Shown in pieces: positions 1-24,677 of a stretch of DNA of 53,315 nt. The DNA is from an uncultured Aminicenantes bacterium. GTDB lineage: Bacteria; Acidobacteriota; Aminicenantia; UBA2199. Below the pieces are notes generated by a model. The model had not been told where the DNA came from. It saw only the letters and a program-made list of their open reading frames with translations, and did not search any database. How positions within the stretch are numbered: the first letter of the stretch is position 1; each line of letters opens with the position of its first letter. The stretch is taken from positions 1 through 53,315 of the forward strand of contig CBDAFS010000045.1 of assembly GCA_965195285.1 (NCBI GenBank), in the 5' to 3' direction. The translations under genes were made by a program, and so were the position numbers.

Positions 1-196
1 CAACATGTATAACTTGGTTAAAACTCCCCTTTGAATCCAAGGTAATATCATTATCTGCTATTCTGATTGAATCATAAATGGGGTTTACAACTGTCCCGGA
101 AACCTTTATATTGAAAATCTGATTACTAGAATCTGAATGCACCCTTACAAAAACAAATAGAAAAACCAATACGAAAAGATTTCGTCCTCTGAGCAT
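1..196 (-). CDS. Partial (3' end outside window) exported protein with N-terminal signal peptide
   Basis: Not in the ORF track. ATG at 196 preceded by GGAGGA RBS; reads MLRGRNLFVLVFLFVFVRVHSDSSNQIFNIKVSGTVVNP... and stays open to the window edge. Confidence 0.6.
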   Translation of the reverse strand, partial: MLRGRNLFVLVFLFVFVRVHSDSSNQIFNIKVSGTVVNPIYDSIRIADNDITLDSKGSFNQVIHV

Positions 197-355
197 TTAT
201 TCCTCCAGTTACATATTTCTTTGGTTATTATAACGCCATTAACTTTGAATTGTTACAACAACATAAGGTAATTTCATAGGAAATTTCCTTTTTAATCACA
301 TAGAAATATTAATAATATGTATGTTGAATGTCAATGGATTGTGGTTTAACAACTC

Positions 356-432
356 GGGGGACACCATACTTAATTTTTCAAACATGGCTTATCCAGGGAC
401 ATTATAATCGAATAATTAGGTATGATGTACCT
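356..432. repeat. REP-like imperfect inverted repeat pair
   Basis: GGGGGACACCATACTTAATT (356-375) vs AATTAGGTATGATGTACC (413-431); style typical of RAYT-associated REPs. Confidence 0.55.
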
Positions 433-463
433 ATAATTTCTCGGTTCATTTTTTTTTATAAAT

Positions 464-504
464 AATAGAAAAAAAATCAAAAATCCAAAAGACCGTCCCC
501 AACC
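464..504 (+). repeat. 41-bp REP-like repeat, left copy (inverse of 11600-11640)
   Basis: AATAGAAAAAAAATCAAAAATCCAAAAGACCGTCCCCAACC is the exact reverse complement of 11600-11640; related GTCCCC/ATCCCC cores at ~612-630 and ~666-681. Confidence 0.85.
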
Positions 505-787
505 TTATAGACATCTAATTTGCCTCCTCATATTTCCTTAAAATAATTTTTCAATAGATATTTTAATAAAAACCAAAACTTTGTCAACTTCATAAAATTT
601 CCAAGTTTCAAAGCACCGTCCCCACTCCTCTGCAGGGAAAAGGTTGAAGAAGTCAAGAAATCAATGACCATCCCCCACCCTAGGGATTATAGAAAGCAAA
701 ATAAAAAGAAATCTTAACCATACAGAATACCTTCTATATGATTATCAGGCCTTTGATTCTAGCATTTGTTAAGTTATAAGAATAAAA

Positions 788-820
788 TGGCGAGACCATT
801 AAGGATAGAATTCCCCTGAA
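788..820 (+). pseudogene. N-terminal stub of a REP-associated (RAYT/Y1 HUH) tyrosine transposase
   Basis: ATGGCGAGACCATTAAGGATAGAATTCCCCTGA = MARPLRIEFP-stop, the characteristic start (MARPLRIEFPGA.YHV..RG) of this family; sits within the REP cluster. Confidence 0.7.
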
Positions 821-852
821 CTCTATTCATTTAATTTCACTTAGAGCTTTTC

Positions 853-881
853 TTGACAAAAACTCTAGGTTTTTTTATTAT
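853..881 (+). promoter_or_regulatory. sigma70-type promoter for the 979/1196 gene pair
   Basis: TTGACA-17 nt-TATTAT. Confidence 0.55.
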
Positions 882-978
882 TAGATTTACAAATAAGGAG
901 AGATAGTTAAAAACATTGGAAAAGGTAAAATTATAGAAAATAAATTACTCACTTTTTTTGACAATATATGAGGATGAC

Positions 979-1191
979 ATGGAAAAAGTATTTGAATTTT
1001 TTAAAAATAATTATTATTGGATTTTTTCAGGAATTGGAATATTTTTATTAGGCTTAATATTAAAATTCTTTAGGAGTAAAAAGAAGAATCAGTATCAAAA
1101 AATTGGAGATCATTCAAGAGGATTTCAAGCTGGTGAAAGTATAAACATAAGTTTAAACAATTCTAAATCAAAGAAAGAAGAAAAGGAATGA
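979..1191 (+). CDS. Small single-TM protein (70 aa) with C-terminal Q/N/G/S-rich putative amyloid signalling motif
   Basis: ATG at 979 after GAGGA RBS; TM WIFSGIGIFLLGLILKFF, basic patch, then QYQKIGDHSRGFQAGESINISLN. Confidence 0.75.
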   Translation: MEKVFEFFKNNYYWIFSGIGIFLLGLILKFFRSKKKNQYQKIGDHSRGFQAGESINISLNNSKSKKEEKE

Positions 1192-1195
1192 TAAT

Positions 1196-4100
1196 TTGGA
1201 GAAAAAACAAAAGCAAGTAATTGGGAATTATTCAACTGGTATTCAAGTTGAAAATATATCACTAAACATAAATGTTGAAAAATCTGCCCTTTATGAATTA
1301 ATACTTAATTTAATTGAAAATACCAAAAGTAATAAATTTGAGAATATTAAAATTAGTGAAATTAGTGAAATTCTTAAAATTTCAAATATTGTATCAGAGC
1401 CACCACTAATTCCAAATAAAATTTCTTATAGGAAAAAACTTATTGATAATATATATGAAAAATTAAAAAAATTGACATGGATAGGAATATATGGCGAAAA
1501 AGGTACAGGTAAAACTTATATAACTTTATTACTAAATAAAAAATTTACTGGAAACAAATATTGGATCTCATTTAAAGATATAAAAAACGAACTTTCAGAT
1601 TTATATCTTGATGAAGTCATTAAATCACATTTTGGAGAAGAAGTTCCAAAAAAAAATATATATGATTATTTCAGTGTAATTTTAAAAAAGACACCAAAGA
1701 ATAGTATTTTTATCCTTGATGATTTACCTGAACTGCTGTTAAATTTCCCTTTAACTCAAAAGTTAATTTATTTTGCAAAAGTTTGTGCAGAAAATGGAAT
1801 AAAAATAATATCAACAAGTTTTTATAATTTCCATTCAGATTTTGTGTATTCTCTTGGAGAAAATGAAATTAATACTTTTTCACCCCCCCCTTTTTGTAAA
1901 GATGAAATTTCTGAATTATTTAATATGCACAATGCAAAAACCGAAATTATAAATAATAATGTTTTAGAATTCATATTAACAATCACAAAAGGAAATCCAA
2001 TTCTTATTAGTTCACTTATCAAATATTTAGAAAAAAAAGATTGGAAGTATGATCTAAACATTTTCAATGATTTAATCATGGATAAGTATGCAAAAGATGA
2101 AAAAAAACAATATTTTTTAATTTTTTCAAGAACTGTTATTGAAGAAATTAAAGACTTAGTTTATAGGTTAGATTTAATAAATAGAAAATTTTCTTATAAA
2201 GAGATTTTACTAGTAAGTGAAGTGGAACCAAAAATAAAAAATCCTTATGATAAATTAGGTTTTGTGTTAAATGTTTGGATTCAACAAACAGAGGATATGT
2301 TTGAACTATCTCCACTCATTAAGGGCATTGGCTTTTTTAATTTGGATTTTACAATTGCAAAAAATATTTTTATTAGCTTGGCCAATAATATAATTAGCAA
2401 AAAGTTCCTTAATCAAAATGAGGTGAGCCAAGTTATTGTTTATTATATAAAAGCTAAAGAATATAATCTGGCAGCTTTACTTTTAAAAGATATCTTAATT
2501 GAATTTTTAAAGATTGAAAATAGAAAATTTGAGGATTGGGGGATTTCCTATATTTGGGCTAATCAAGCTCTGCCAGAAGAGATTGATTTAGATTTAAGGT
2601 TAATTATACGCAGTTTGCAGCTAAAAATCAATCAAAAGTTGAATAGAAAATCTGATTTCATTTTAGAAGATACTAAGAAATTAATCAGAGAAGCAAGTAA
2701 GGATGAGATTTATGGAGTGATGATAATTTCTTTTGTTTTGGCAACAGAAAGAATAGATAATAAGGATCAACTATTTTATAGTTGTTTTATAAAAACTCTT
2801 CAATTTGAAAACAGAAATGATCTTTTAAATAAAATAAAGAATTTTCGTTATGAATATATCCTTTGGCTTATAGCATTTGAAATAGAAAAACCTACCCAAC
2901 TAATCCAATGGATTAACACAATTGATAAAATGCCAGTTGAGTCAAAAAAAATATTTTTTGAGTCTAAAGAGTTCACTGAAAAAATTTCTCTGATTTTTGA
3001 TAATGTATATTTAAACGAATATCATAAGACAAGTAATGAACAAGATTGGGACAAATTTTTGAAATACATTGAGAAATATGAAAATAAATTAAAAAAGATG
3101 AACATTGAAATATTTTGGTGTCTTTTAAAGCGCCTTCAAATATTGATCTTAGCAGAACATATTAAGGATTTTGATAAATCAATGAAAGTAGCAAGGAATT
3201 CTCTTGAAAATTTCTCTAAAAATCCTATAATTCAATTTATAATAAAAGGAATTATTGCAAGGGAAAATTTATTTAATAAAAGATTTGAAGAATCTGATAA
3301 ATGGTTTACAGATGCTTTTAAAGAAAATATTAACTCACTTTTTTCAGAAAAAATTCTTGGATTTTTATGGCAAGCAGAAGCAGTATCTCATTTTGATTTA
3401 GATAAAGCCATAAAAATATGTAAGGAGGGAATTAGTTTTTATAATAAAAACAAAAAAAATATTAATGAAAGTTTTTTATTAATGAGTTATGGAGAGTTAA
3501 TAATTCTTATTTTTAGAAAATTTGGGTTTTCTAAAACTTTTAAGGCATATGAAAAAGGGATTGAATTACTTTGGTCATCAAAACAAAAAGACAATACATG
3601 GAAAAAACTGTTTGTATTATTTGGTCATATTAGTGGATATCTATCAGCTATGGCGTGTTCTGGATCACCTCCTTCGGGGACAGAAAATGGAAAAATTTAT
3701 ACTCCGCCAACAACTGGAATGTTTATAAATATGTCTGATGAGTTGATTTCGTTGTATAAATCTGATAATGATTTTTTATTACCAACTCAAGTGGCAATTT
3801 TTGCAGAAGATATAGGAAATGATGAGAAAGCTTTAAAGTGGGCATTAATAGCTTACAAAGTTTTGCCAAAGAATAATTATTTTCTAATTTATCCCATCAT
3901 TATAAAAATTCTTATCCCAAATTTAATATTAAATAAAGAATTCAAAAAAGCTATTGTTATGTCATATGAATTTTTCCTTAAAAAACCAGATTTTGTTGAA
4001 AGGTCTATATCAAATTCTTATAAAGATAAAATATTTGAAGATCACATTTTGTACTCCACTATAATCCCAATTATGCTTAATTATGGAATATTGAAAATTC

Positions 4101-4600
4101 AAAATTTAATTAACAAAAATGAAATTGATTCATTAGTACAAAAAATCTCAAACATATCATTTGAAAATATAAATAACGGATCTCGGGTAAAGAGTGATAT
4201 TGAAAAAGTTTTTAAAATATCTTTATTTGAAGATTTTTCACATAATAATGTCATTGAATTGGGGAAAAAATATCAAAAAGAAGATAGAAAGGGATTTACA
4301 TTATTGTGTTTTATCGGTGCGATATTGAAAGATAATATTTCAATTGAAGATTCCATACAATTACAAGAAAAATTTATAGAATTCATTCAGAAACAATATT
4401 CAAAATCATTAAAATTTATCTACAGAAATATAATTATTAGATTTTTCATAACCTATTGGGAAAATGTTATCAAAATTAACAAAACAAAATTTAAATATAC
4501 TAAAACATTATTAAAAAAAATAAAAAATAATTTTGATTCTCAAAATGAACACTCACTTGTAAAAACATTTATTATGGTTAAAGATAATTTAATTAAATAA
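1196..4600 (+). CDS. STAND/NLR-like P-loop NTPase with long helical-repeat C-terminus and N-terminal motif matching the upstream protein
   Basis: Walker A GEKGTGKT, Walker B IFILDD, GNP motif (TKGNPILI), about 700 aa alpha-helical/TPR-like tail; N-terminus QKQVIGNYSTGIQVENISLNIN. Confidence 0.8.
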   Translation: MEKKQKQVIGNYSTGIQVENISLNINVEKSALYELILNLIENTKSNKFENIKISEISEILKISNIVSEPPLIPNKISYRKKLIDNIYEKLKKLTWIGIYGEKGTGKTYITLLLNKKFTGNKYWISFKDIKNELSDLYLDEVIKSHFGEEVPKKNIYDYFSVILKKTPKNSIFILDDLPELLLNFPLTQKLIYFAKVCAENGIKIISTSFYNFHSDFVYSLGENEINTFSPPPFCKDEISELFNMHNAKTEIINNNVLEFILTITKGNPILISSLIKYLEKKDWKYDLNIFNDLIMDKYAKDEKKQYFLIFSRTVIEEIKDLVYRLDLINRKFSYKEILLVSEVEPKIKNPYDKLGFVLNVWIQQTEDMFELSPLIKGIGFFNLDFTIAKNIFISLANNIISKKFLNQNEVSQVIVYYIKAKEYNLAALLLKDILIEFLKIENRKFEDWGISYIWANQALPEEIDLDLRLIIRSLQLKINQKLNRKSDFILEDTKKLIREASKDEIYGVMIISFVLATERIDNKDQLFYSCFIKTLQFENRNDLLNKIKNFRYEYILWLIAFEIEKPTQLIQWINTIDKMPVESKKIFFESKEFTEKISLIFDNVYLNEYHKTSNEQDWDKFLKYIEKYENKLKKMNIEIFWCLLKRLQILILAEHIKDFDKSMKVARNSLENFSKNPIIQFIIKGIIARENLFNKRFEESDKWFTDAFKENINSLFSEKILGFLWQAEAVSHFDLDKAIKICKEGISFYNKNKKNINESFLLMSYGELIILIFRKFGFSKTFKAYEKGIELLWSSKQKDNTWKKLFVLFGHISGYLSAMACSGSPPSGTENGKIYTPPTTGMFINMSDELISLYKSDNDFLLPTQVAIFAEDIGNDEKALKWALIAYKVLPKNNYFLIYPIIIKILIPNLILNKEFKKAIVMSYEFFLKKPDFVERSISNSYKDKIFEDHILYSTIIPIMLNYGILKIQNLINKNEIDSLVQKISNISFENINNGSRVKSDIEKVFKISLFEDFSHNNVIELGKKYQKEDRKGFTLLCFIGAILKDNISIEDSIQLQEKFIEFIQKQYSKSLKFIYRNIIIRFFITYWENVIKINKTKFKYTKTLLKKIKNNFDSQNEHSLVKTFIMVKDNLIK

Positions 4601-4641
4601 AAAACAAGTATGAGTTGACCAAAGAGAACCTAGAAAAGCGA

Positions 4642-5355
4642 TTATTTCCCTAAACCCATATATGATGCATATAAATCTGGTATTAATGAAGTATGAGATT
4701 TTAATTGTCGTGTAGAAAATATATCATCCAAAACTTCAATCGAACATTCTATAGCATGAGAAATGTGAGGAAAAGAAGCACATGATACTTTTTGACCATT
4801 AAAGAAATCATATCTAATTCCTTTCAGATTGGAATGAAAATCAGATCCCTTAAATCCATAATGTATTCCATTGGTATGTAGGCTATTTCTAATTAATGCA
4901 TTTGTGTTTAAGATTTCGATAGCATTATGATTCTTTCCTAAATAGGTTAATAAATCATTAGCTATATTATAGAAACCTTTTTTATGATTTTTTTTTAGTG
5001 CTTGACAGATATTTTTGATACAGTTCTCAATTTGAAATTGCGCCAATAAAGATAAGGATAATTTTGATGTCTTATGAAGTGAATCTCCCATTAGTTTGAC
5101 AGATTTAGAATCAATCTGAGTCAAGCCTAATAATAGTGGAATATTTTGTCTGATGATTGTATCAGCAGTGGTCCAATTTTCTAATAAATTTAGAATGCCC
5201 AAGCATGAATAAGAAACCAATCTGATGTTTACTATAGATGCTGAACGAGTATCATTATCCGGATATTTATATTTATTAATTAAAGTGGTACATATTTCAA
5301 TTAAGTTTAAAACACATTCAGCTTCATCTTTATGTGATTTATATGCTTTAAACAT
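4642..5355 (-). CDS. Hypothetical protein, possible HEPN-like RNase
   Basis: 237 aa helical protein containing RxxxH-type motif IRNSLH; directly downstream of the TIR gene. Confidence 0.5.
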   Translation of the reverse strand: MFKAYKSHKDEAECVLNLIEICTTLINKYKYPDNDTRSASIVNIRLVSYSCLGILNLLENWTTADTIIRQNIPLLLGLTQIDSKSVKLMGDSLHKTSKLSLSLLAQFQIENCIKNICQALKKNHKKGFYNIANDLLTYLGKNHNAIEILNTNALIRNSLHTNGIHYGFKGSDFHSNLKGIRYDFFNGQKVSCASFPHISHAIECSIEVLDDIFSTRQLKSHTSLIPDLYASYMGLGK

Positions 5356-5387
5356 TGCTAAAAAACAAAACTTCTAAAGGTTGTCTT

Positions 5388-6308
5388 TTATATATTTTTT
5401 ATTTTCTCAATAAATGCATCTCTTGTTTGACCAGTAATTATATATAATTTGTTTTTTTTATATTTTAAGTTGAATTCTTCAAGTATTTTTTGAGCCTTAA
5501 TTGTTAATCTTAAAGCATTCGTTGCTATTATAACTGGGAATTTTGATGCAGATACTATTTTAAAAAATTTTTCTACTTGTTCACTTGGAAAATTTTTTCC
5601 TCTTTTATCATTCCAATATTCAATATAAATATAAAATATATTATCATTTTTGTTTTTAATTTCAGAGATGTATTTCCCTTTTGGAAAATAGTTGTTAATA
5701 TCATAGTAATGTAAATCTGCATTTTTTACTGCATCTCGAACTTTATATTTCAAATCTCTCTCACTATTTATAGTTGTAAATTGATCCTCTTTAACATATA
5801 AATCTTTTTGTTCTTTTAAATTGTGAATATTATCTAATTTTTTTTCAACTTTAAGAAATAAAGAATGAACAAAACGATCTCTTTGATTTCCTGTACAATC
5901 AAGAAATGTCTTCGGAAATTTAAATCTTTCACCTTCAAGTTGAAAAATTTGACGTTTTTTAAGTCCTTTTAGATTATGTCTCTCAAAATCCACTTGTTGT
6001 AACATTACAGGTATTATTGGTTTTTTATCAGTTTTTAAAAATATTGGAAGCTCTTTTTTTAATATATATTCAGATGCAAGAAAAGCTGGATTTATAAGAA
6101 GCAAGCCTAAATTACATCTTTTAAGAGCGGTGCGAATTTCTTCATCCCAATCTTCACCTATCAAAATATTTCCATCTTGCCAAAATTTGTACTCATACCT
6201 AAGAGATGCAGCAACTTGTTCTTTAAATCTTTCAAGAAATTTATTTGAATTGGCGCTATTTGATCTGGCATATGAAACAAAAAATTCGATCTTTATCCTT
6301 CTTCCCAT
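5388..6308 (-). CDS. TIR-domain protein with C-terminal restriction-endonuclease-like (Mrr-like) region
   Basis: FFVSYA...FWQD..ILIGEDW...LLLINPAFLASEYI.KKELP (TIR with putative catalytic Glu); C-terminal IYIEY...SEQVEKF...IIATNA..T..AQK resembles a degenerate Mrr catalytic fold. Confidence 0.75.
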   Translation of the reverse strand: MGRRIKIEFFVSYARSNSANSNKFLERFKEQVAASLRYEYKFWQDGNILIGEDWDEEIRTALKRCNLGLLLINPAFLASEYILKKELPIFLKTDKKPIIPVMLQQVDFERHNLKGLKKRQIFQLEGERFKFPKTFLDCTGNQRDRFVHSLFLKVEKKLDNIHNLKEQKDLYVKEDQFTTINSERDLKYKVRDAVKNADLHYYDINNYFPKGKYISEIKNKNDNIFYIYIEYWNDKRGKNFPSEQVEKFFKIVSASKFPVIIATNALRLTIKAQKILEEFNLKYKKNKLYIITGQTRDAFIEKIKNI

Positions 6309-6362: not shown

Positions 6363-7469
6363 TCAAATTATTGTATAGGTTGCATACATATGAGACTCAG
6401 GATAAGATTTTATCACATAATCAATGGGAGACAAATTCCCCAATGAGTTATGTGGTCTTTTAGTATTAAACCAGATAAGATGTTCCATAAGATCTTTGTT
6501 AAATTTAATCAAATCCCTGTCATCATAAAAAGGGTATGGGATCAGGAACTCTTCATTTAAGCTTCTGTTAGCCCTTTCAACAAAACTGTTTATTTTAGGA
6601 CATCTGGGATAGATGAAGAGATGTTCTATTTTCTTCTTTTTAAGGTATTGGTCAAATTTACCCAGGAACTCACTTCCATTATCTGTTTGTACTTTTTTTA
6701 TACCTCCTTTTAAAGGATATACCTGTTCAAGTTTTTTAAAGAAATCAAGACCATCACTGCTACTGGCAGAGTGATATGCATAAGAGAACTGAAACCGTGT
6801 CGATAGATCTATTGCATTAAAAATATAGGTCCTTATCCCCTCCATAAATCTTAGCATTGTATCGATCTGAATATATCCGGGAGTTGATATCTTTGGTGAT
6901 CTCTTTACCCTGTTCTTATAAGATACTTTCCTTTTTGCCCATTTACTTGACGGGTTATGATACACACGGCCATTGGGAGGGTGGAGCATATCATATCTCC
7001 TTATCACTTTACCTATTGTTGATACTGATATGCTATCGAGGTCATTTGTCTCACAGTATTCATCCAAAAACGGTTTGATCTTCTCTTTACCAAGACGGTA
7101 ATGATCTCTCCTTAGCTTCCTGATATAATTGATCAGTTCTCTTTTTACCATCATCTTACGCTTAACTTTAGGGGACCTGGATCTCGGAATTAGAGAGGTC
7201 AGCTCTTTGCCACTCGATTTATATAACTTAAACCACCTATAGATCGTTGCTCTCGATACTCCATATGCATCCATGCAGGATCTCAATCCATGACTCTCAA
7301 AATGCTCTATTACTTTTAATCTGAACTTACCCCGGGTACTGCCTGAAAATTTGAATATCTCCTCATATGAACTCATAACTCCTTTATTACATAGTGGAGT
7401 CCCGTACCACAAGTCTCTATAACGGGTCGATCGACCTATTTTGCCTCGCATATTTAAACTCTTATACAA
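6363..7469 (-). CDS. DDE transposase (IS481 family, integrase core)
   Basis: HTH (GVSRATIYRW), IQIDT, QTDNGSEF, NSFVERANR, N..RPH.SL...SP. Confidence 0.9.
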   Translation of the reverse strand: MYKSLNMRGKIGRSTRYRDLWYGTPLCNKGVMSSYEEIFKFSGSTRGKFRLKVIEHFESHGLRSCMDAYGVSRATIYRWFKLYKSSGKELTSLIPRSRSPKVKRKMMVKRELINYIRKLRRDHYRLGKEKIKPFLDEYCETNDLDSISVSTIGKVIRRYDMLHPPNGRVYHNPSSKWAKRKVSYKNRVKRSPKISTPGYIQIDTMLRFMEGIRTYIFNAIDLSTRFQFSYAYHSASSSDGLDFFKKLEQVYPLKGGIKKVQTDNGSEFLGKFDQYLKKKKIEHLFIYPRCPKINSFVERANRSLNEEFLIPYPFYDDRDLIKFNKDLMEHLIWFNTKRPHNSLGNLSPIDYVIKSYPESHMYATYTII

Positions 7470-8344: not shown

Positions 8345-8569
8345 ATGATTGGAAGGATGAAAATGTATGTTCTCCCAGAGGGATGTATATGCGAACAGTT
8401 CACATATCTTACCAATTCAGGTGTATATCCGACCTGTTCGGATATGAATGAGTTAGGCGACATTGCATTGAAAGTAATGTTGCCATTTCAACTTAAAAAG
8501 AAAGGAGGTGATAGTAATGACGCAGAGACGAGTACCTACCGCTCCAACAGCCGGAACAGTTGTGCTTGA
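8345..8569 (+). CDS. Small Cys-containing hypothetical protein (possible accessory or second precursor)
   Basis: GAGAGGTG RBS 4 nt before ATG; overlaps the precursor start by about 50 nt. Confidence 0.35.
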   Translation: MIGRMKMYVLPEGCICEQFTYLTNSGVYPTCSDMNELGDIALKVMLPFQLKKKGGDSNDAETSTYRSNSRNSCA

Positions 8570-8747
8570 CGCAGGGGCAGCTGCTAAATTAGTTGCTGGA
8601 ATTACCGAGGCTAAATTGGCGAACATTCGCGAAATCCTAGCCACGAGGAAAGAAATTGCTGCTATGAGGGCCGAAGACGTTGAGAAATTGGCAAGGCTTG
8701 CGGAGGTTAATGTGGCTAACGGCGGTTGCGGTATTGGTTGTTGGTAG
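8517..8747 (+). CDS. Putative RiPP precursor peptide (76 aa) with C-terminal core GGCGIGCW
   Basis: Strong RBS AAGGAGGTG; helical Ala/Glu/Lys leader, Cys/Gly/Trp tail; directly upstream of a radical SAM/SPASM gene. Confidence 0.8.
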   Translation: MTQRRVPTAPTAGTVVLDAGAAAKLVAGITEAKLANIREILATRKEIAAMRAEDVEKLARLAEVNVANGGCGIGCW

Positions 8748-8852: not shown

Positions 8853-9968
8853 ATGAGAAAAGAATTGAACAGGTTAGTGCTATCTGTCACTTCGCACTGT
8901 AACTTACGTTGTGAATATTGTTACGTTTTCAATGACAACAAAGAGCATTTTATACCTAAAACCATGACGCCTAGGATTATTCAGAAGGCGATCTATAAAA
9001 TATTCAATAGCTACAATGCTGTTCAATTTGTTCAGTTCTTTGGGGGAGAACCCCATTTAGCTCTTCAGAGTATGCAGATTGCGGTTGACGAAACTCGAAA
9101 GGTTTGCGAGATTCGTAAATTACTACATCCCCAATTCGGAATTGTTACAAATCTAATGATTCTTAATGAGGAAATCTTATCTTTTTACAAGGATAATCAT
9201 CTAAGAGTCACAGTGAGCATAGATGGCCCTGAGACGGTCCATAATTTTTTAAGAGTATATCCATCTGGAAGCGGTACTCACAACAAGGTTGTTCAAAATC
9301 TTGGGAGATTGCGCGATATGGGGATACCTTTTGCAGTAGAGTGCACATTTACTCAAATGCACATTAAGAAAGGGATAACGATAGTGGATTTACTAAAGTA
9401 CTTTGACCAGATAGGAGCAGTGCGCGCAGATATAGTATGTGTGATGGCCAAGCCTGACTCCAAGTTGTATGTTCATGGTGAGACTTTACCGCAGCTTATA
9501 CAACTGTTTATCAAAGCTGTTGACTATTGGTTTGATTATTGGCGACAAGGCGGAAAGACAGTGTTTGGAATAATAGGTGAGATCCTTGCAATGGTTAGTT
9601 CGTCACAAAAGGAAATTTATTGTCCTGCTGGAGAATCGTATTTGGCAGTAGCTCCTGATGGTAGAATTTACCCATGTCATCTTTTTATCAGTGATAGGAA
9701 GTATGTGCTCGGAAATGTCGAAGATTCTGGGCCACTCCATCTTTCAGGTTTCAAAAACTCTTTAAAGAGCAGTACCTCCTGTAAAAGTTGTCCAATTAAT
9801 TCCCTATGCCTCAGCTGCTTAGGTAGAAACAAGTACTATTGCGGCAATTTGGATCAACCATTCGTATCCGATTGTATTCTGAAAAGTAAGATCATAAGTA
9901 GAACATTAGAAAACCTGTGTGATGGGTTATTACCAGAAAATCAGGCCACGTCACCTAACACAGCATAA
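8853..9968 (+). CDS. Radical SAM/SPASM-domain peptide maturase (anSME-like)
   Basis: CNLRCEYC, FFGGEP, SIDGP..HN..R, SPASM C.AG...DG.IYPC...CKSC.....C..C...C. Confidence 0.9.
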   Translation: MRKELNRLVLSVTSHCNLRCEYCYVFNDNKEHFIPKTMTPRIIQKAIYKIFNSYNAVQFVQFFGGEPHLALQSMQIAVDETRKVCEIRKLLHPQFGIVTNLMILNEEILSFYKDNHLRVTVSIDGPETVHNFLRVYPSGSGTHNKVVQNLGRLRDMGIPFAVECTFTQMHIKKGITIVDLLKYFDQIGAVRADIVCVMAKPDSKLYVHGETLPQLIQLFIKAVDYWFDYWRQGGKTVFGIIGEILAMVSSSQKEIYCPAGESYLAVAPDGRIYPCHLFISDRKYVLGNVEDSGPLHLSGFKNSLKSSTSCKSCPINSLCLSCLGRNKYYCGNLDQPFVSDCILKSKIISRTLENLCDGLLPENQATSPNTA

Positions 9969-17754: not shown

Positions 17755-20700
17755 ATGAAAACCATACTTTATATTATTCTTTATGTCTCATGGACGCTCT
17801 GGCTTTTCTTTTCCTTCAGGATCATTATCAAAATGAAGGTTGAGCCGAGACTGAATTCATTATGGGCCATGCTGTTTTCCACTCTGGCCATATTTACCAT
17901 GTTTTTTTTATTATGTTATGACTATCAGTCCGATACTTTTTATTTCACCCAAAAATATATATACCCGGTCGATCAGTCCAAATCCCAGGTGATTATCGGA
18001 AACCAGAAGGATGCTTCTGACCTGACCATAGAAAATCCTTATGCTGATGCCGCTCATGTCAAGCTAAAACTGAAAGACCAATGGTTTTTGGTGGAAAACA
18101 TCAGTGATTCCAAAAATGTCGACATCAATGGACGGTATTTGAATAAGATGGTGGTTCGGCCCGGGGATAAAATTGAGATCCAAGGAAAGGATAGTATCGA
18201 AGTGTTGGGCCTGAACCGTCAGTATCCCCTTGGAAGGTCTATCAAATTCCGCATAACCACCAACCGGGATTCAATAGGAAAAATCATTACCATATCCACT
18301 TTTCTGAACAAAAACGTGTATATCCGTTACGGCCCGGTTGAGAAAATAACCGCAGGGTTCAATACCCTGATACTTCCGTCCCGGGAATCCCGGGCCATTG
18401 CCAGCTTGGCCTATGAGTCAAAGAATTCTCTTTTGGGGCTGAATATTTATTATTTTATTGTTTTCCTGATCATATCGCTCTTATCTGTGGCTATTTATCT
18501 TTATCTGAAAAATCATTTCAATGGGGCAGTCTTCCTGCTGCTGATTGGGTCACTTCCCTTCCTATCCGGATATATTTCAAATGCAAAACAGATCCTGGTT
18601 ATTCTGGGCTTTCTCCCCCTGATTCTGATCACTCAAATCAGACGCAAAACCAAATGGAAAATGGGTTCGGTTTTGATTCTGATTTCATTTGTCATTATTT
18701 TTTTCCTTCCCGGACTCATCAATATGCAGGGTGATTTCACCATCATTCCGGCCGGCGGCCAAGACAATTTCTCCATGCGATTTTCCACCCGGAGCAACAG
18801 CTTTTTCTTATCGGAAATTCAAAGGACCCTGAGTTATGACCGGGAACACCAAATCATATTGGGATATACACCGTATAAATTAAAAGTCAATAAAAAGAAA
18901 ATTGTTCTGTCTCCCCTGAATCCGGAAAGAATCCGGGTCGCTGATCAATTCAGCGGCATTATCAGCAATCTGAATGATGTGATCCCGGGAAGAAGTTATA
19001 TTCACCTGAAATACCCCCATCAATTTGAATTCATTTCACCGCAGTCCATTGCCGGAAAGGACCGGTTCACCGTTGCCAACCAAGCTGGAAATGCGGTGGT
19101 AATGTCAAGGACCGAAAAGGAGCATTATACATTATTCTCCAATGGGCTGCTGCTCTTAACCGGTGCATTCTGGTTGTTCTGGTTTATCAATTTATTCGGC
19201 GTAACCGGGAAAAAATTTAAAATCTTCAATCTGAACCTGGTCAGGGGATCAAATTTTTTTATATTCAATTTTGTCTATTTCATGCTCAGTCTGGGTTATA
19301 TCATGTTCGGCAGTCTGGCCCTTTACAACAATTATTTTTTAAAGAACTTCGAAAAATACAGAACCAAAGGGCTTTTCTTGTTTGTCATGGCTTTTTTTTT
19401 CCTGCTGATTTTCAGTAAATACAACAAGATTTGGATACTGCTTTTCCGGATTCTGAAACAGACCAAATTTCAAATCCCGCTGGCTGTGGGATTATTGCTT
19501 ATGCTGCCCGGTCTTTACTCTAGGTTTTTTTTAATATTGGCAGCCGGATATATTGTTTTCGTTTTTTTTATCAAGCTACGTAAGGATTTAATCTATGAAA
19601 TTCAAAATCTCTATCATCAACCCCTGGGATTGAGAAATGTCAATGAAAAAGTCATTTCAGACCTGAATAAAAACGAAAATCAGAGACTGTTTTTCAGCCT
19701 GGGAAAAGTACTCTACCATCAGGGCTGGAATTACATAATTGTCTCCGACCTGTTGCTTTTGCTCTCTCTTTTTTTCATTGTACTTCAGGTATTTTTAGGT
19801 GGAGAGCTTGGGGTTTCGGTGGCGGGCTTTTTCTTTCTTCCCATTGAAATCGGAAAGATATTGTTGACCATTTACTTTGCCGATTGGGTGAGCCGGATCG
19901 ACCGGGGCATGCACCTGGGAGTCCTATGGATATACGGACTTGTGCTGGTACCCTTTTTGTTGTTAATTGTGTTTTTAAAGGATTTTTCCCCTCTGCTGGT
20001 CTTTTCCTTTGTGTTTCTTTATCACATCATCAAGATTAAAAAATCCTTCTTGTTTAAGATCATATTGCTTCTTATAATTGTATCAACTCTAGCCATTTCA
20101 ATCGCTTCTATCGGAGAATACACTTTTCCGTTCAAAACCAGGCCTTACAATTTGATTCTTACTCTGGCCCTGTTATTGATGATAGGGGTGATGTTGCTGA
20201 GGATATGGATGGGAAAATATGCTAAAACCTTCAAGCTGATCAGTAAGTTCATCTTTTCCGCCCTGCTGATATTGGCACTACTTTCAGTCCTGGGAGCGGT
20301 CTGGCATTCCAATATGTCCGTCCCCCGGGTTCTGGGAGACCGCATCGACTCCTGGCTGAATCCCTGGCAGGACTATAACCTGTCTTATCAGTTCATTAAC
20401 TCGCTGTGGCTGATGAAGGGAGCCGGTTTGCTGGGCAATCCGACCCAGGTTATGGAGCAGGCCGTTCATGTCCCCCTTATCGAACAGGACTTGAGCTTCA
20501 GCCTGTATATCGGCGTTTTTGGCCTGGCCGGTATTGTTTTCATTTTTGCCACCCTGGTAATGCTGGTTTTTTTGATTCACCGGCTGGTCACCCGGTTCAG
20601 GGATGGACCTTTTCGATGGGAGGTTTATGTAATCGAATTCCTGACGGTTATTTTTTGCGCCCAGTTTCTCTTTCCGGCCCTGTATGTGGTCGGTTTACTG

Positions 20701-20817
20701 CCCATCATGAGCCAGCCGTTGCCATTTCTTTCCTATTCCAATAACATGTTGCTCCTCTTTTCCCTGCCCTTTTCTCTGTTGATCATGGTATTAATCAATA
20801 ATCTGGAAAGGTCATGA
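17755..20817 (+). CDS. FtsW/RodA (SEDS) family protein with N-terminal FHA-like domain
   Basis: PIEIGKI, KDFSP, R..SWLNPW, YQ..NSL, VP..EQD, G.LP...QPLPFLSY; FHA-like ING...PGDKIEI. Confidence 0.85.
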   Translation: MKTILYIILYVSWTLWLFFSFRIIIKMKVEPRLNSLWAMLFSTLAIFTMFFLLCYDYQSDTFYFTQKYIYPVDQSKSQVIIGNQKDASDLTIENPYADAAHVKLKLKDQWFLVENISDSKNVDINGRYLNKMVVRPGDKIEIQGKDSIEVLGLNRQYPLGRSIKFRITTNRDSIGKIITISTFLNKNVYIRYGPVEKITAGFNTLILPSRESRAIASLAYESKNSLLGLNIYYFIVFLIISLLSVAIYLYLKNHFNGAVFLLLIGSLPFLSGYISNAKQILVILGFLPLILITQIRRKTKWKMGSVLILISFVIIFFLPGLINMQGDFTIIPAGGQDNFSMRFSTRSNSFFLSEIQRTLSYDREHQIILGYTPYKLKVNKKKIVLSPLNPERIRVADQFSGIISNLNDVIPGRSYIHLKYPHQFEFISPQSIAGKDRFTVANQAGNAVVMSRTEKEHYTLFSNGLLLLTGAFWLFWFINLFGVTGKKFKIFNLNLVRGSNFFIFNFVYFMLSLGYIMFGSLALYNNYFLKNFEKYRTKGLFLFVMAFFFLLIFSKYNKIWILLFRILKQTKFQIPLAVGLLLMLPGLYSRFFLILAAGYIVFVFFIKLRKDLIYEIQNLYHQPLGLRNVNEKVISDLNKNENQRLFFSLGKVLYHQGWNYIIVSDLLLLLSLFFIVLQVFLGGELGVSVAGFFFLPIEIGKILLTIYFADWVSRIDRGMHLGVLWIYGLVLVPFLLLIVFLKDFSPLLVFSFVFLYHIIKIKKSFLFKIILLLIIVSTLAISIASIGEYTFPFKTRPYNLILTLALLLMIGVMLLRIWMGKYAKTFKLISKFIFSALLILALLSVLGAVWHSNMSVPRVLGDRIDSWLNPWQDYNLSYQFINSLWLMKGAGLLGNPTQVMEQAVHVPLIEQDLSFSLYIGVFGLAGIVFIFATLVMLVFLIHRLVTRFRDGPFRWEVYVIEFLTVIFCAQFLFPALYVVGLLPIMSQPLPFLSYSNNMLLLFSLPFSLLIMVLINNLERS

Positions 20818-23800
20818 AAAAAAGTTTTTTTATTTTTATTCTGGTTCTTCTATTGATGATTACTTTAATACTGCTGAGGATCCAATCCATTTCCTTTCCC
20901 AAAGAGGTAGGGGATGAAACCGAGATTATCTATCTGGAGGAATTTCAGGATGACGACCGTATCTTAAAAATATTTTCAAAGAATGATCATTTTTATATTA
21001 AACCCTTTATCTATGAGATAAAACTGAATGGCCAGAATATCAACACCGAAATGGAAATCTGTCACGACGATATCATTTCTGCCAGAACCAAACAATTTCG
21101 CTTTGAAATTCAACCAAAAGTCCGATCCTATAAAAAAATCTTTCAGCGGCCACTCAGGGAAATCCTGCCGCTTCCCGGTAATGAGAAATATATCGGGGGC
21201 TGGATGTCTCCCACCAAAAGACGGATTTTGTCTTCTGAAAGGGATAAGCAACTGTTGAAGAAACTGATCATAGAACTAGAACCGGAACTTTTGCAGAAAA
21301 TAATTCCGGAAAGAAGCAAATTTGGTGGGCGCCTGATTCACCTCAGGCGTAATAAGACCGGCGCTGGCATTCAGGTCAAATCCGAAGCGGTCACTATGAT
21401 ACGAATTCAAAATATCAACTCCCAATCAATCGAAAAAAACCGATGGATCAGCTTGAAATCAGGTGATATCTTTAAATTCCGCAAACATGACGACGGTACC
21501 ACACTGCAAATAAAATTCGATTTTAACCGGGTGAAATCCAGAATGTTCAGGGGCTCCCGGGGCCAGGAAAAACTGGTCTCTGCCGATATCATCTATCTCA
21601 TCGTTTCCTACCTGAAAAAGAACCAAACCGTTTCACCGACACCGCCTATCACCGCCTCTCTGAAGTCATTGAATGAGGGGAATCGTTACCGGATCCAAAA
21701 AAACAAAGACAATCTGTTCCTGGGGAAAAAAGGTCTTTTCCTGTTCAGTCTGAGACCAGACAAATTACTGAACCGCCAGTACATTCCCGATGCGGTTCAC
21801 GAAGGCGGTATCATGGACATCAAAGAAATGCTGGACCGTAAAATGCTGTACCGCAAGCAGAATAATTTCTACCCGGTCGATCCGGTCTTTCTGGATCAGA
21901 TCAGGGAAATTGTCATCCTGAAAAAATCCGATTTAAATGAATTCCTGAAGCAGCATCATATTGAATGGATGGATTTCCAAGACCAGAAGGAAATTGAACA
22001 TTACCTGGTTCAGGCTGAAACACGGATCCGAAAAATGAAAAAGAAGGGCAATTGGAATTGGTTTTGCCGGGAAATCAAGAAAATGAACAACCTTTATTTC
22101 CTGAAAGGACTTGGGATTAAAGTCAATGATGACATCAAATATCGGGTATTTTACCGGGTGGGAAATATTTCCTGGATTCCGGCGGAAACCTGGTTCCGGG
22201 ATATCCCCCAGGTATCCGGTATAGAAGATTATTATTGGGGTCCCTTGATAAAAGATTCCAAGGAGGTTGAATTCAGGATTGATTTCAACCGGCCTCCCGG
22301 CCGGGTCCGACTGCTTTCGGTGGCCGATTACCGCTTCAGACAGGAGGGAAGACCTTTTACCCGAAGAAGTTTTTTCGACGGGGTACAGGACATATCTCTC
22401 GGTCGAAATGGAAACAGGCTCTATGTAAAAATCTCAAATATTCTCGACTTCAACCAAAGCATCAGTATTGCCAGTCTCCAGCTGAAGGCTGATATTAAAA
22501 CCTCTACGTCAAATATATTGAGTATTTTCACCGATGAAACCTGGAGTTCATCCATTGATATGACCCACTGGATGGCGGTTCGTCTGAATCCCTATTTTAG
22601 TGCTTCGGATGATGCGGCTGCGGATATAAAATCTATCTGGTACAACGAGGATTGGAATCCCATTTTCAGGGGGGTCAAGCACCGCTTTTTTAAAAAAGAT
22701 TTCAGACTTGATTCCCGACCGCTTTCCTCCAGCTGGAGAATATTTACTTTAGGACAATATCTGCTCTGGATCAATAATCAACCGATTGTAAATCCGGAAG
22801 ATTTTACCCGGAATCTCCGACCGGGACTTAACACCCTGATGGTAATGATTTCCAAAAAAGGATATTTGAAAAAATATCTCCGAAGCAGGCTCTTCAAGAT
22901 AAAAAACAACCAAATCGTTTTGCAGCAAAAAATCCTGCGCAGATCCAGTTTTGTGCGGGGAAAAGGAAGCAAAAAACCCACTATTTTTGATACCCAAAAG
23001 CAAGTATTAGCCTACAGTGTGAAAATCAATGATAAATTTCACCGTTTTTACTCTCCGGTTGCCAGCTCCGAGCTGCAAGCCATTGTGGGAAGTGCCGAAT
23101 CCGGGTCCTGGGGCATCGAACAGGTTTTTTATAACCTTCATAAGCAAAAGGGAGTTAGTGAGATTCATCTGACCTTGAACTCCGAATGGCAGAAGATTGC
23201 TGTCCGCCACCTGTTCTCCCTTCTGGGGGATATCAAGAAAAGGGAATCCATGAACCCGGTTTATCTGAATTTGAAAGATCGTCTCATCCAAACCGAAAAC
23301 CAGCTGTCCCGGGCCCGTATCGAACTCATGACCCTGAAGAATGAATACTATCGGGCGATCACCATGAGAAATATCATCGATATGCAAAACCGGATTGAGT
23401 CCTTGAAAACCGAAATCAACAAAATCAAGAATTATTTCTACGAAGCATCCATGATAATCATGAATTCCAAGGGACAGATATTGGTTTCCGCCTGTTACCC
23501 CTATGATGAAAAGAGCATGCAAATGCTCAACGGCTCATTGTTGAAACCCTATCGTGCCTATGAAGTTCCGGAACTGAATCGAGCCTGGAAATGGAGATAC
23601 AATCCCGGTTCAACAGTCAAAGTGCTGGATTCAATTGCCTTTTTACATTCGCTTTCACAAAAGCATCAGGCCACCGGTGGTTATGAATTTTCCCATCTGA
23701 AACATTTACTGAATTCCACCAGTGATTTTTCTCATTTCCCCAGAAATGATCTGAAAGGCAGCCGGATGCTAAACGGGAAACAGGTCTTCTTTCAACTTCA

Positions 23801-24677
23801 GAATTTCAGAGGGCACAATATTCCCTATGGATTTTGCTCATTGAAAGATGCCCTGACCTATTCGTACAACACCTATTTTGCTTACCTGGCCCTGCATCAC
23901 AACCTCATGTTAACCCTTGACAGCGCCCTTTATAAAAAGAGTAGCTACTTTATTTCAAAATCCAACATACCTTTGGAGAAAACCTACCGTGACTATCCGG
24001 TACTTGAATTTGCCGAGAAACTCGGATTCAACAGAAGAATTGATCTGCTGGCCAACTTGAACCATACCGAAATTGGCCGGTTTTTAAACCGGAGCCCCTA
24101 TGATGCTTTTACCAGCATCGAATCGGTTTTTCCGGTGAATGCCTATACCCCTAGTGATATTGCCTATTTCTCCATCGGACAGAGTGACCTCCAGTTGACC
24201 ACTCTGCAGAACTCCCTGGTGGTGTCCACCATACTGAATAACGGATGTCTGTTCTACCCCTCGGTGATAAAATCAATCAACATGTATAATTCTGTGGATA
24301 AAAAAATGGAGTTGATTGAACCGGACCCTGAAAAAAGCAGGTCCAGGATATTCGACCCGGATATTGCCGAACAGATCAAACAGGCCATGAAAAATGTAGT
24401 TGATTCGGGTACGGCAGGTGGGGTGTTTTCGAGGAAATTGAAACAGGCCCGGTTATTTTATGCCAAGACCGGCACAGCTGAGACCAAATTTTACCGGGAT
24501 CATTCACTTTTTGTGGGATTTGTGATTTTCCGAAATGGAGAAAAAATCATTTTTTCAACCGTGGTTCCCCGATCCGGGACCGGTGCTGCGGTTGCCGGGC
24601 GCTTAACAGCCAGAATCATCCAAGACATCATTGAATTTGAAAATAAAAATCCGAATCGCCCGGTTAATCCGTACTGA
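20814..24677 (+). CDS. Very large class B-type penicillin-binding transpeptidase
   Basis: N-terminal TM; SxxK (PGSTVK), SxN (SYN), KTG (KTGTAE); 4-nt overlap with the SEDS gene. Confidence 0.85.
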   Translation: MKKSFFIFILVLLLMITLILLRIQSISFPKEVGDETEIIYLEEFQDDDRILKIFSKNDHFYIKPFIYEIKLNGQNINTEMEICHDDIISARTKQFRFEIQPKVRSYKKIFQRPLREILPLPGNEKYIGGWMSPTKRRILSSERDKQLLKKLIIELEPELLQKIIPERSKFGGRLIHLRRNKTGAGIQVKSEAVTMIRIQNINSQSIEKNRWISLKSGDIFKFRKHDDGTTLQIKFDFNRVKSRMFRGSRGQEKLVSADIIYLIVSYLKKNQTVSPTPPITASLKSLNEGNRYRIQKNKDNLFLGKKGLFLFSLRPDKLLNRQYIPDAVHEGGIMDIKEMLDRKMLYRKQNNFYPVDPVFLDQIREIVILKKSDLNEFLKQHHIEWMDFQDQKEIEHYLVQAETRIRKMKKKGNWNWFCREIKKMNNLYFLKGLGIKVNDDIKYRVFYRVGNISWIPAETWFRDIPQVSGIEDYYWGPLIKDSKEVEFRIDFNRPPGRVRLLSVADYRFRQEGRPFTRRSFFDGVQDISLGRNGNRLYVKISNILDFNQSISIASLQLKADIKTSTSNILSIFTDETWSSSIDMTHWMAVRLNPYFSASDDAAADIKSIWYNEDWNPIFRGVKHRFFKKDFRLDSRPLSSSWRIFTLGQYLLWINNQPIVNPEDFTRNLRPGLNTLMVMISKKGYLKKYLRSRLFKIKNNQIVLQQKILRRSSFVRGKGSKKPTIFDTQKQVLAYSVKINDKFHRFYSPVASSELQAIVGSAESGSWGIEQVFYNLHKQKGVSEIHLTLNSEWQKIAVRHLFSLLGDIKKRESMNPVYLNLKDRLIQTENQLSRARIELMTLKNEYYRAITMRNIIDMQNRIESLKTEINKIKNYFYEASMIIMNSKGQILVSACYPYDEKSMQMLNGSLLKPYRAYEVPELNRAWKWRYNPGSTVKVLDSIAFLHSLSQKHQATGGYEFSHLKHLLNSTSDFSHFPRNDLKGSRMLNGKQVFFQLQNFRGHNIPYGFCSLKDALTYSYNTYFAYLALHHNLMLTLDSALYKKSSYFISKSNIPLEKTYRDYPVLEFAEKLGFNRRIDLLANLNHTEIGRFLNRSPYDAFTSIESVFPVNAYTPSDIAYFSIGQSDLQLTTLQNSLVVSTILNNGCLFYPSVIKSINMYNSVDKKMELIEPDPEKSRSRIFDPDIAEQIKQAMKNVVDSGTAGGVFSRKLKQARLFYAKTGTAETKFYRDHSLFVGFVIFRNGEKIIFSTVVPRSGTGAAVAGRLTARIIQDIIEFENKNPNRPVNPY

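Follow-up and report, generated by a model that had tools for sequence, protein, structure and literature searches.

In a 53,315-nucleotide contig of an uncultured Aminicenantes bacterium (CBDAFS010000045.1, hereafter the window), two adjacent genes encode proteins that share a motif of about 24 amino acids rich in Q, N, G and S. The first gene encodes a 70-residue protein with one predicted transmembrane (TM) helix, and the second a STAND NTPase similar to NOD-like receptors (NLRs), which bears its copy of the motif at the N-terminus. We read the pair as an amyloid-signalling (BASS-like) module of two genes, an NLR and a minimal effector, a reading to which we give a probability of roughly 55%. 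The genome is metagenome-assembled and consists of 62 contigs with 3,282,334 bases and a guanine-cytosine (GC) content of 42%. An earlier note, made from the letters of the window, had already proposed a system of this type, and both its gene boundaries and the gap of 4 nucleotides (nt) between the two genes were reproduced here (Table 1).

A motif common to the small membrane protein and the receptor

The last 40 residues of the small protein were aligned locally with the first 60 residues of the NTPase. The alignment reached a score of 56, compared to a mean of 25.1 (standard deviation 4.7, maximum 53) for composition-preserving shuffles, and none of the 5000 shuffles attained this value, whether one or both sequences were shuffled. 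When all 62 contigs were translated in six frames, the pattern Q.Q.IG..S.G.Q appeared twice, both times at the pair. The strict pattern is therefore unique in the genome, which bears out the matched motif that the earlier note had described. At the DNA level, 52 out of 81 aligned nucleotides were identical between the two copies, and 5 of the 12 identical residues were encoded by different codons. The likeness is therefore one kept at the protein level and does not stem from a recent DNA duplication. We also considered a single frameshifted gene (TM helix, motif, motif, NTPase) and rejected it, since two related loci, L039 and L031, share the two-gene layout with start signals of their own.

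The small protein is organised as M-E, a hydrophobic stretch, RSKKKN, the motif QYQKIGDHSRGFQAGESINISLNN and a charged tail of 9 residues. The earlier note had the motif end the protein; its position near the C-terminus stands, and its placement exactly at the end does not. A GAGGA sequence is found 4 nt ahead of the start codon. The best 19-residue Kyte-Doolittle window covers residues 13-31 (mean 1.91), five basic residues (K29-K36) follow the helix and E2 precedes it, a layout that, under the positive-inside rule, suggests an inner-membrane protein with its N-terminus outside, its C-terminus inside and the motif in the cytoplasm. Only 37 residues precede the motif, 20 of which form the TM helix. 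The small protein presents a negative charge at position 2/3 followed by an N-terminal hydrophobic helix (E2, then residues 12-31). An acidic position 2 with a hydrophobic helix is a reported feature of Bell/HeLo/MLKL-type N-termini (Dyrka et al. 2020, 10.1101/2020.01.06.895854; Ibarlosa et al. 2024, 10.1101/2024.11.07.622273).

Relatives of the small protein were scarce. A word search of 5.8 billion proteins returned only the protein itself at near lengths and none longer, the ESM Atlas yielded nothing but small-protein clusters without names (0.92-0.93), their recognition value falling below the mark set by the tool, tblastn of plasmids with the small protein gave no match, and PDB sequence searches with two effectors gave no significant match. 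The PADLOC model PDC-M43A (PDLC04646) aligned residues 6-68 with profile positions 2-61 of 203 (E 7.6e-8), mostly through the TM part, which alone scored 19.4 bits. The match did not extend over the full 203 positions of the model; the remaining ~140 positions, which correspond to receiver-like domains in other genomes, have no counterpart in the small protein, and the small protein of L039 did not match this model. We take 'PDC' in this name to mean 'phage defence candidate'.

Regarding the NTPase, TTG 1196 was taken as the start codon because it is the only ATG, GTG or TTG that keeps P70 and R79, which are invariant or nearly invariant in the family. Its motif, QKQVIGNYSTGIQVENISLNIN, lies within the first 56 residues, which had pLDDT values below 50 in an AlphaFold2 model built from 51 family sequences (mean pLDDT 86.9). 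In the 51-sequence alignment, D175, D176 and P178 of the Walker B region were nearly invariant. Foldseek matched the model to the STAND-TPR protein 6mfv (E 1.7e-11), Apaf-1 (1e-7), Avs3 (4.7e-7) and Avs4 (1e-5), with further matches to CED-4, SAMD9, MalT and plant resistosomes, and the family profile matched TPR proteins over positions 657-793 (best E 2.2e-8). The Pfam matches of the NTPase itself, NB-ARC and nSTAND6, were below threshold (NB-ARC 15.4 against a cut-off of 23.5 bits), and some of its relatives pass the NB-ARC or NACHT cut-offs. No PADLOC Avs model matched, the sole PADLOC match being mad8 (E 0.054), and no PIN or GreA/B domain was detected. The protein carries the arrangement that defines STAND proteins, in which helical/winged-helix modules and a repeat sensor come after Walker A and Walker B. 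As judged from the model, it is an NLR-like STAND protein whose sensor is made of helical repeats and whose N-terminal tail, which bears the motif, is disordered. Pfam, PADLOC and NCBIfam recognised no domain ahead of the P-loop, in agreement with the earlier remark that no recognisable enzymatic effector is found there.

In order to place the motif, we compared it with amyloid signalling motifs. It spans 22-24 residues, with Q, N, G, V and I making up 59% of them (30% in the long frames of the genome) and K, P and L 9% (21% in the long frames). BASS motifs are described, in the text of the paper that reports them, as 20-25 residues long, rich in Q/N/G/V/I and poor in K/P/L (Dyrka et al. 2020, 10.1101/2020.01.06.895854), and on sequence grounds the length and composition of the motif fit that written description, the logos not being part of the comparison. 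According to the same text, G-phi-Q-phi-G is the shared core of RHIM, PP and BASS3 (Dyrka et al. 2020, 10.1101/2020.01.06.895854). This signature is present as G-F-Q-A-G in the small protein and as G-Y-Q-A-G in the N-terminal motif of the relative P0142. Its background was 59 occurrences in 1.42 million residues of the long frames of the genome (4.2e-5 per residue) and 4 in the 197,917 residues of 150 family representatives, one of the four being the P0142 motif. The small protein therefore meets the central signature of RHIM, PP and BASS3 and the NTPase copy reads GIQVE at this place; convergence is an alternative source of the likeness, which concerns the core, the flanks not having been compared with the published logos. 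The short heads of P0142, P0026 and P0005 align with the window motif, giving the consensus K.Q.Q.V.G.S.G.Q[AS]G.DINV.LN.

Recurrence of the layout and comparison with known systems

Our reading of other loci supports that the layout, an NLR with an N-terminal motif next to a co-directional protein with a matching C-terminal motif, recurs in two distant loci, in line with the architecture put forward in the earlier note. L039 is a 4165-base metagenome contig encoding the NLR P0026, which is 27% identical to the window NLR in the phmmer search and 23% in alignments. Its 69-residue small protein has E2 and a single TM helix (Kyte-Doolittle mean 2.35) followed by KK; the tail is rich in Q/N/S and ends with QISGGDMNVGS. 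The small open reading frame (ORF) starts at ATG 99 (with AAGGA 9 nt upstream) or at TTG 81 and overlaps the ATG of the NLR, at position 295, by 14 nt. The NLR N-terminus begins ...NFVAGRDINVQLN, and its alignment with the tail of the small protein scored 53, a value reached by 1 of 5000 shuffles. No ORF of at least 100 residues was present in the ~340 bases after the NLR, flanks that are too short to exclude one.

L031 belongs to a genome of the window's own phylum. There, a helical protein of ~132 residues ends 3 nt before a 1166-residue NLR with a TTG start. This effector (ATG 988) has D2 followed by a Gly/Ala-rich hydrophobic helix, and it comprises five predicted helices and a disordered tail. 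Both proteins of the locus have Q-[IL]-A-x-G-x-x-I-A-Q-A in common, with a motif score of 39 that 6 of 5000 shuffles reach. The single-sequence model of the effector (pLDDT 67.8) gave generic helical-bundle or TPR matches in Foldseek (best E 0.5) and, with VIA, a designed four-helix bundle as the best match (Z 10.2). The sampled genomes yielded no orthologues of the L031 pair. When the tails of the three effectors were scored against 11 NLR N-termini, each of them matched its own NLR best (56 versus 44 for the next best in the window, 53 versus 34 in L039 and 39 versus 36 in L031).

The earlier note had turned on whether homologous NLRs lack the motif or the paired gene. Both were present in the two short-headed loci that were read, and the other loci carried fused heads (L029, L030, L032-L034, L036, L038 and L040) or a truncated one (L037). 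As a separate observation, the tail of the L031 effector (ORF 889-1389) scored 36 against the N-terminus of P0104, an NLR from an unrelated locus, compared to 39 against its own partner, a likeness that may point to a second class of motif shared within the family.

The receptor family is large and its members differ at the N-terminus. An exhaustive phmmer search with the window NTPase returned at least 1010 cluster representatives at E up to 0.001, and 472 at E up to 1e-30. We located the P-loop with a regular expression in the 150 best of the 1010 representatives, the window protein included, and found it in 138: beyond residue 300 in 86 proteins, at 141-300 in 32, at 61-140 in 17 and at residue 60 or earlier in 3. 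Pfam named the head in 11 of the 31 proteins scanned (SMEK_N, Metallophos, EAD8, EAD1, Mrr_cat_2, NNH5 in five proteins, and SEFIR/TIR), and a Kaistella member carries a fused head with the GHSMGG motif typical of alpha/beta hydrolases. The commonest head, of ~320 residues, conserves R-G-[FY]-x-Y-Q ... G-E-D-I-D ... E-Q-[VI]-K and had no Pfam match in the members scanned. It was seen in P0004, P0010, P0030, L029, L030, L032-L034 and L038, accounts for most of the 86 long-headed relatives and, from its conserved residues, looks like a PD-(D/E)xK nuclease. Among the short heads, several consist of Q/N/G-rich peptides that differ in sequence. Altogether, effector or adaptor heads are swapped within the family in the manner of NLRs. 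The member in L036 (Priestia aryabhattai plasmid NZ_CP128554.1, locus 2434-6258) has a fused head that starts with a Gly-rich hydrophobic helix, as do P0045 and P0077, and may represent an all-in-one form whose helical head targets the membrane.

The distribution of this STAND/TPR family was sporadic in the sampled genomes, with members in 7 out of 401 from the window's phylum, 3 out of 401 from the phylum of Kaistella and 2 out of 201 from the family of genome G123. With the NLR as query, tblastn of phages gave no match and tblastn of plasmids gave matches with fused or truncated heads. Searches for related loci found none in genome contigs with the window NLR, P0142, P0016 or alignment A6, none in metagenome contigs with P0016 and none in four scans of viral contigs, while alignment A4 retrieved only the Kaistella locus with its fused hydrolase-type head.

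The gene arrangement was then set beside characterised systems. Bell/NLR pairs are collinear in 91.3% of cases, 57% lie at most 10 bp apart and 42% overlap, according to the text of Dyrka et al. (2020, 10.1101/2020.01.06.895854). The 4 nt of the window, the 3 nt of L031 and the 14-nt overlap of L039, together with their collinearity, match these published statistics, and the window pair is probably translationally coupled. Bell/NLR pairs likewise have a Q/N/G/V/I-rich, K/P/L-poor motif and 'all-in-one' relatives in which the effector is fused to the NTPase. In contrast, they carry a helical Bell domain of ~100 residues ahead of the motif, where the small protein has a bare TM helix. Because the 37 residues before the motif leave no room for a Bell domain, the window pair is not a Bell-domain system. 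The kinship with BASS/BELL systems drawn in the earlier note accordingly stands for motif length, composition and the G-phi-Q-phi-G core and falls for the Bell domain, the effector being too small to hold one. The published screen began from Bell-domain proteins, as its text states, and the word 'transmembrane' is absent from the main text of that paper (Dyrka et al. 2020, 10.1101/2020.01.06.895854); because of this seeding, the screen could not pick up pairs such as the one in the window. In literature text, figures and supplements aside, we came upon no account of a single-TM effector that lacks a Bell domain and carries an amyloid signalling motif.

For Bab/Agp (BASS11) of E. coli ECOR25, amyloid templating, altered membranes and abortive infection were shown experimentally, and the D2A mutation abolished Bab activity in fungal incompatibility assays, as the text of the paper reports (Ibarlosa et al. 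2024, 10.1101/2024.11.07.622273). As described there, Bab/Agp resembles the window pair in its adjacent genes, the N-terminal motif of the partner and the acidic position 2. However, Bab (109 residues), the smallest executioner described until now, keeps a small helical 'Babybell' domain that the small protein lacks, its partner is non-STAND whereas that of the small protein is a STAND NTPase without a PIN or GreA/B match, and the BASS11 residues named in the text (I87-G88-S89-V90, Q92, D99, N100) have a spacing that does not obviously fit the window motif. In the fungal HET-S/NWD2 system, as the two papers cited here describe it, the membrane-targeting protein inserts through its N-terminal helix, and its C-terminal motif is templated by the one at the N-terminus of the NLR. 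HET-S combines two motif pseudorepeats with a globular HeLo domain; the small protein has one copy and no globular domain. Avs proteins and the all-in-one family members have a similar NTPase and helical repeat fold, the same N-terminal effector position, a sporadic distribution and an island context. Their effector is fused, whereas that of the window would be a separate gene coupled through a peptide motif, and no PADLOC Avs model matched.

Genomic setting and neighbouring genes

The pair sits in a stretch of 23-30% GC (window 1-6000), well apart from the 42% of the genome, and this island looks horizontally acquired. A transposase gene marks its inner edge, and two genes of opposite orientation follow the NTPase (Table 1). 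The TIR_2 domain of the 306-residue protein was detected at E 3.8e-12, and the PADLOC ThsB-like model matched it at E 1.1e-7. The motif was absent from the 237-residue and the TIR proteins, with alignment scores equal to the shuffle mean. These two genes share the low-GC island with the pair and may form a defence unit of their own. Upstream of the pair, a promoter-like site agrees with the consensus at 11 of 12 positions, joint best within 600-5500. In this AT-rich stretch, 33 such sites were found against 37.8 expected; because they are not enriched locally, the site is a candidate only.

Table 1. Positions in the window of the paired genes, their sequence elements and neighbouring features.
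Feature	Position	Strand	Details
Promoter-like site TTGACA-17-TATTAT	853..881	+	~100 nt upstream of small gene; tentative
Small gene, 70-residue single-pass membrane protein, candidate effector	979..1191	+	ATG 979, TGA 1189-1191
Predicted transmembrane helix, residues ~12-31	1012..1071	+	Kyte-Doolittle
Effector-side motif QYQKIGDHSRGFQAGESINISLNN, residues 38-61, includes G-F-Q-A-G (48-52)	1090..1161	+	sequence, alignment
STAND NTPase / NLR-like receptor, 1134 residues	1196..4600	+	TTG start, 4 nt (1192-1195) after stop of small gene
Receptor-side motif QKQVIGNYSTGIQVENISLNIN, residues 5-26, after MEKK	1208..1273	+	inside disordered tail 1-56
Walker A GEKGTGKT, residues 100-107	1493..1516	+	G100, G105, K106 (nearly) invariant in alignments
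Walker B region IFILDDLP, residues 171-178 (ILDD 173-176)	1706..1729	+	sequence
C-terminal all-helical TPR-like repeat region, ~residues 400-1134	2400..4597	+	presumed sensor; approximate boundaries
237-residue protein, no known family	4642-5355	-	convergent with NTPase
306-residue protein, N-terminal TIR_2 domain and unassigned ~180-residue C-terminal part	5388-6308	-	convergent with NTPase
IS481/rve-type transposase (rve_3, rve, HTH_32)	6363-7469	-	inner edge of low-GC stretch

Further along the contig, a 79-residue ORF (8508-8747, + strand) ending in GGCGIGCW is directly followed by a radical-SAM gene (8853-9968, + strand; Radical_SAM E 3.6e-15) whose product has a Cys-rich C-terminal part. 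The two may form a peptide-maturation pair similar to those for ribosomally synthesised and post-translationally modified peptides (RiPP-like); an opposite-strand ORF of 145 residues overlaps the 79-residue ORF at 8508-8747. Two unusually long genes encode an FtsW/RodA-type protein (17755-20817, + strand, 1020 residues) and a penicillin-binding transpeptidase (20814-24677, + strand, 1287 residues); in both, the known domains are C-terminal only and ~800-1000 N-terminal residues are unassigned. A further defence gene on the contig (42856-45756, + strand) encodes a 966-residue Eco57I/MmeI-like restriction-modification fusion (Eco57I, TaqI_C, N6_Mtase).

Proposed mechanism, competing explanations and significance

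In the mechanism that we propose, the small protein would reside in the inner membrane with its motif facing the cytoplasm. The repeat region of the NTPase would sense a phage-derived or other invader cue, and the NTPase would then oligomerise and gather its N-terminal motifs into a beta-sheet (amyloid-like, cross-beta) nucleus. The tails of the membrane protein would take on the fold of this nucleus by templating, and the resulting polymer would pack many TM helices together, so that the membrane is breached and the cell is killed or arrested before the invader multiplies (abortive infection). It is by analogy with the systems above that we infer amyloid formation, templating, membrane damage and a role in defence. 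The low-GC island, the TIR gene, the IS481-type transposase and the sporadic distribution of the family suggest the defence role. Since relatives carry fused effector or adaptor heads at the same place, the motif and the small gene can be regarded as a split form of the family design. We also entertain, more tentatively and at somewhat less than even odds, a stronger proposal in which a bare TM helix with a RHIM-like amyloid motif would be a complete NLR-gated executioner, the globular HeLo, Bell or Babybell domain would be dispensable, and killing would result from amyloid-driven in-register stacking of membrane helices.

Several results weigh against the amyloid-signalling reading. The amyloid step is reached by analogy; a complex prediction for residues 1-40 of the NTPase and 31-70 of the small protein, in three copies each, scored 0.02 without controls and is neutral on this step. 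The NTPase copy of the core, G-I-Q-V-E, fits only 4 of the 5 signature positions. The comparison with RHIM suggested in the earlier note gave a mixed result, as the G-F-Q-A-G core is present in the small protein and Pfam RHIM matched none of six motif segments at E up to 10, in a setting where the HMMER filters drop weak short matches. The check for co-occurrence with a motif model was likewise divided. When the copies of the window were left out of the profile, the small ORF ranked first of 57,293 six-frame genome segments, with an E of only 0.17, and the NTPase N-terminus was not among the 12 best. From 5.8 billion proteins, with 1279 candidates scored, the six-segment profile (A8) recovered nothing but the four NLRs that it contains, and again only these four among the 150 representatives, where the next best had an E of 2.5. 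Single-TM pairs are known from two loci only, the window and L039. Alternative starts in L039 (ATG 99 or TTG 81) and L031 (ATG 988 or ATG 889) alter the acidic feature at position 2. Unlike HeLo and Bell proteins, the small protein has no globular domain to restrain its helix, which leaves the control of toxicity before activation unexplained. Finally, the genome is metagenome-assembled, and the low-GC island occupies the end of a contig.

These points leave room for other explanations. The motif could be a homotypic docking peptide, acting for instance through beta-strand pairing and not through amyloid. The small protein would then be an anchor or regulator that tethers or recruits the NTPase to the membrane, as EAD/Death-like adaptors do, and any killing would be the work of another component, for example the TIR protein encoded nearby. 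We consider this unlikely, while treating it as a serious contender: the same family uses the non-amyloid adaptor heads EAD1 and EAD8, the opposite strand holds a TIR gene 0.8 kb downstream, fibril support is absent and the Pfam RHIM model unmatched, and a TM helix that is probably always inserted in the membrane suits an anchor. However, the TIR and 237-residue proteins showed no trace of the motif, with scores at the shuffle mean, and their genes are convergent with the pair and not co-transcribed with it, and the NTPase has no effector of its own. Moreover, the length, composition and G-phi-Q-phi-G core of the motif fit amyloid signalling motifs, and L039 shows the same two-gene unit with no ORF of at least 100 residues in the ~340 bases after the NLR, short as these flanks are.

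The matched motifs would equally be expected if the small protein were a decoy or inhibitor, whose tail mimics the receptor motif, sequesters the receptor tails at the membrane and blocks premature self-assembly, with receptor polymerisation itself or an unidentified partner as the output. Tight coupling (4 nt) would fix the stoichiometry in such a case, as in toxin-antitoxin pairs. Yet this would leave the receptor without any effector, while its relatives carry one at that position, and the role of executioner falls, in published BASS and Bab/Agp systems, to the small helical partner that targets the membrane; we therefore regard an inhibitor as improbable. It is more improbable still that the two genes have no functional link and that the small ORF is a duplication remnant or a non-coding frame. 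The word search found no relatives of the small protein, and open frames and low-complexity N/K/I-rich peptides are common in an AT-rich region. Against this, none of the 5000 shuffles reached the score of the pair, the synonymous differences indicate divergence with the residues kept, GAGGA precedes the ATG by 4 nt, the TM helix with its positive-inside layout resembles a real membrane protein, and the same arrangement is present in L031 and in L039, whose NLR is about a quarter identical (27%/23%).

The BASS-type signalling principle was established earlier in bacteria, with the BASS pairs and Bab/Agp, and the window pair is an extension of it. What is new here is an effector that has no Bell domain, only a TM helix joined to a motif, in two independent instances (the window and L039). 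If the amyloid-signalling reading is true, no amyloid-controlled executioner described so far would be smaller than this protein, with its 70 residues compared to the 109 of Bab and to the ~100 of a Bell domain plus motif. A TM helix with a templating motif would then suffice, which sharpens the question of how HeLo, Bell and MLKL proteins kill, by release of a helix or by polymer-driven clustering. If the stronger proposal also holds, 'headless' effectors would be a class that Bell-seeded screens missed, to be found beside short-headed members of several NLR families; searches seeded on domains would have overlooked such partners. The system is small enough for a direct test. Should it act as proposed, the signalling principle would reach a large and sporadic STAND/TPR family whose members otherwise carry nuclease-like, hydrolase, TIR and phosphoesterase heads.

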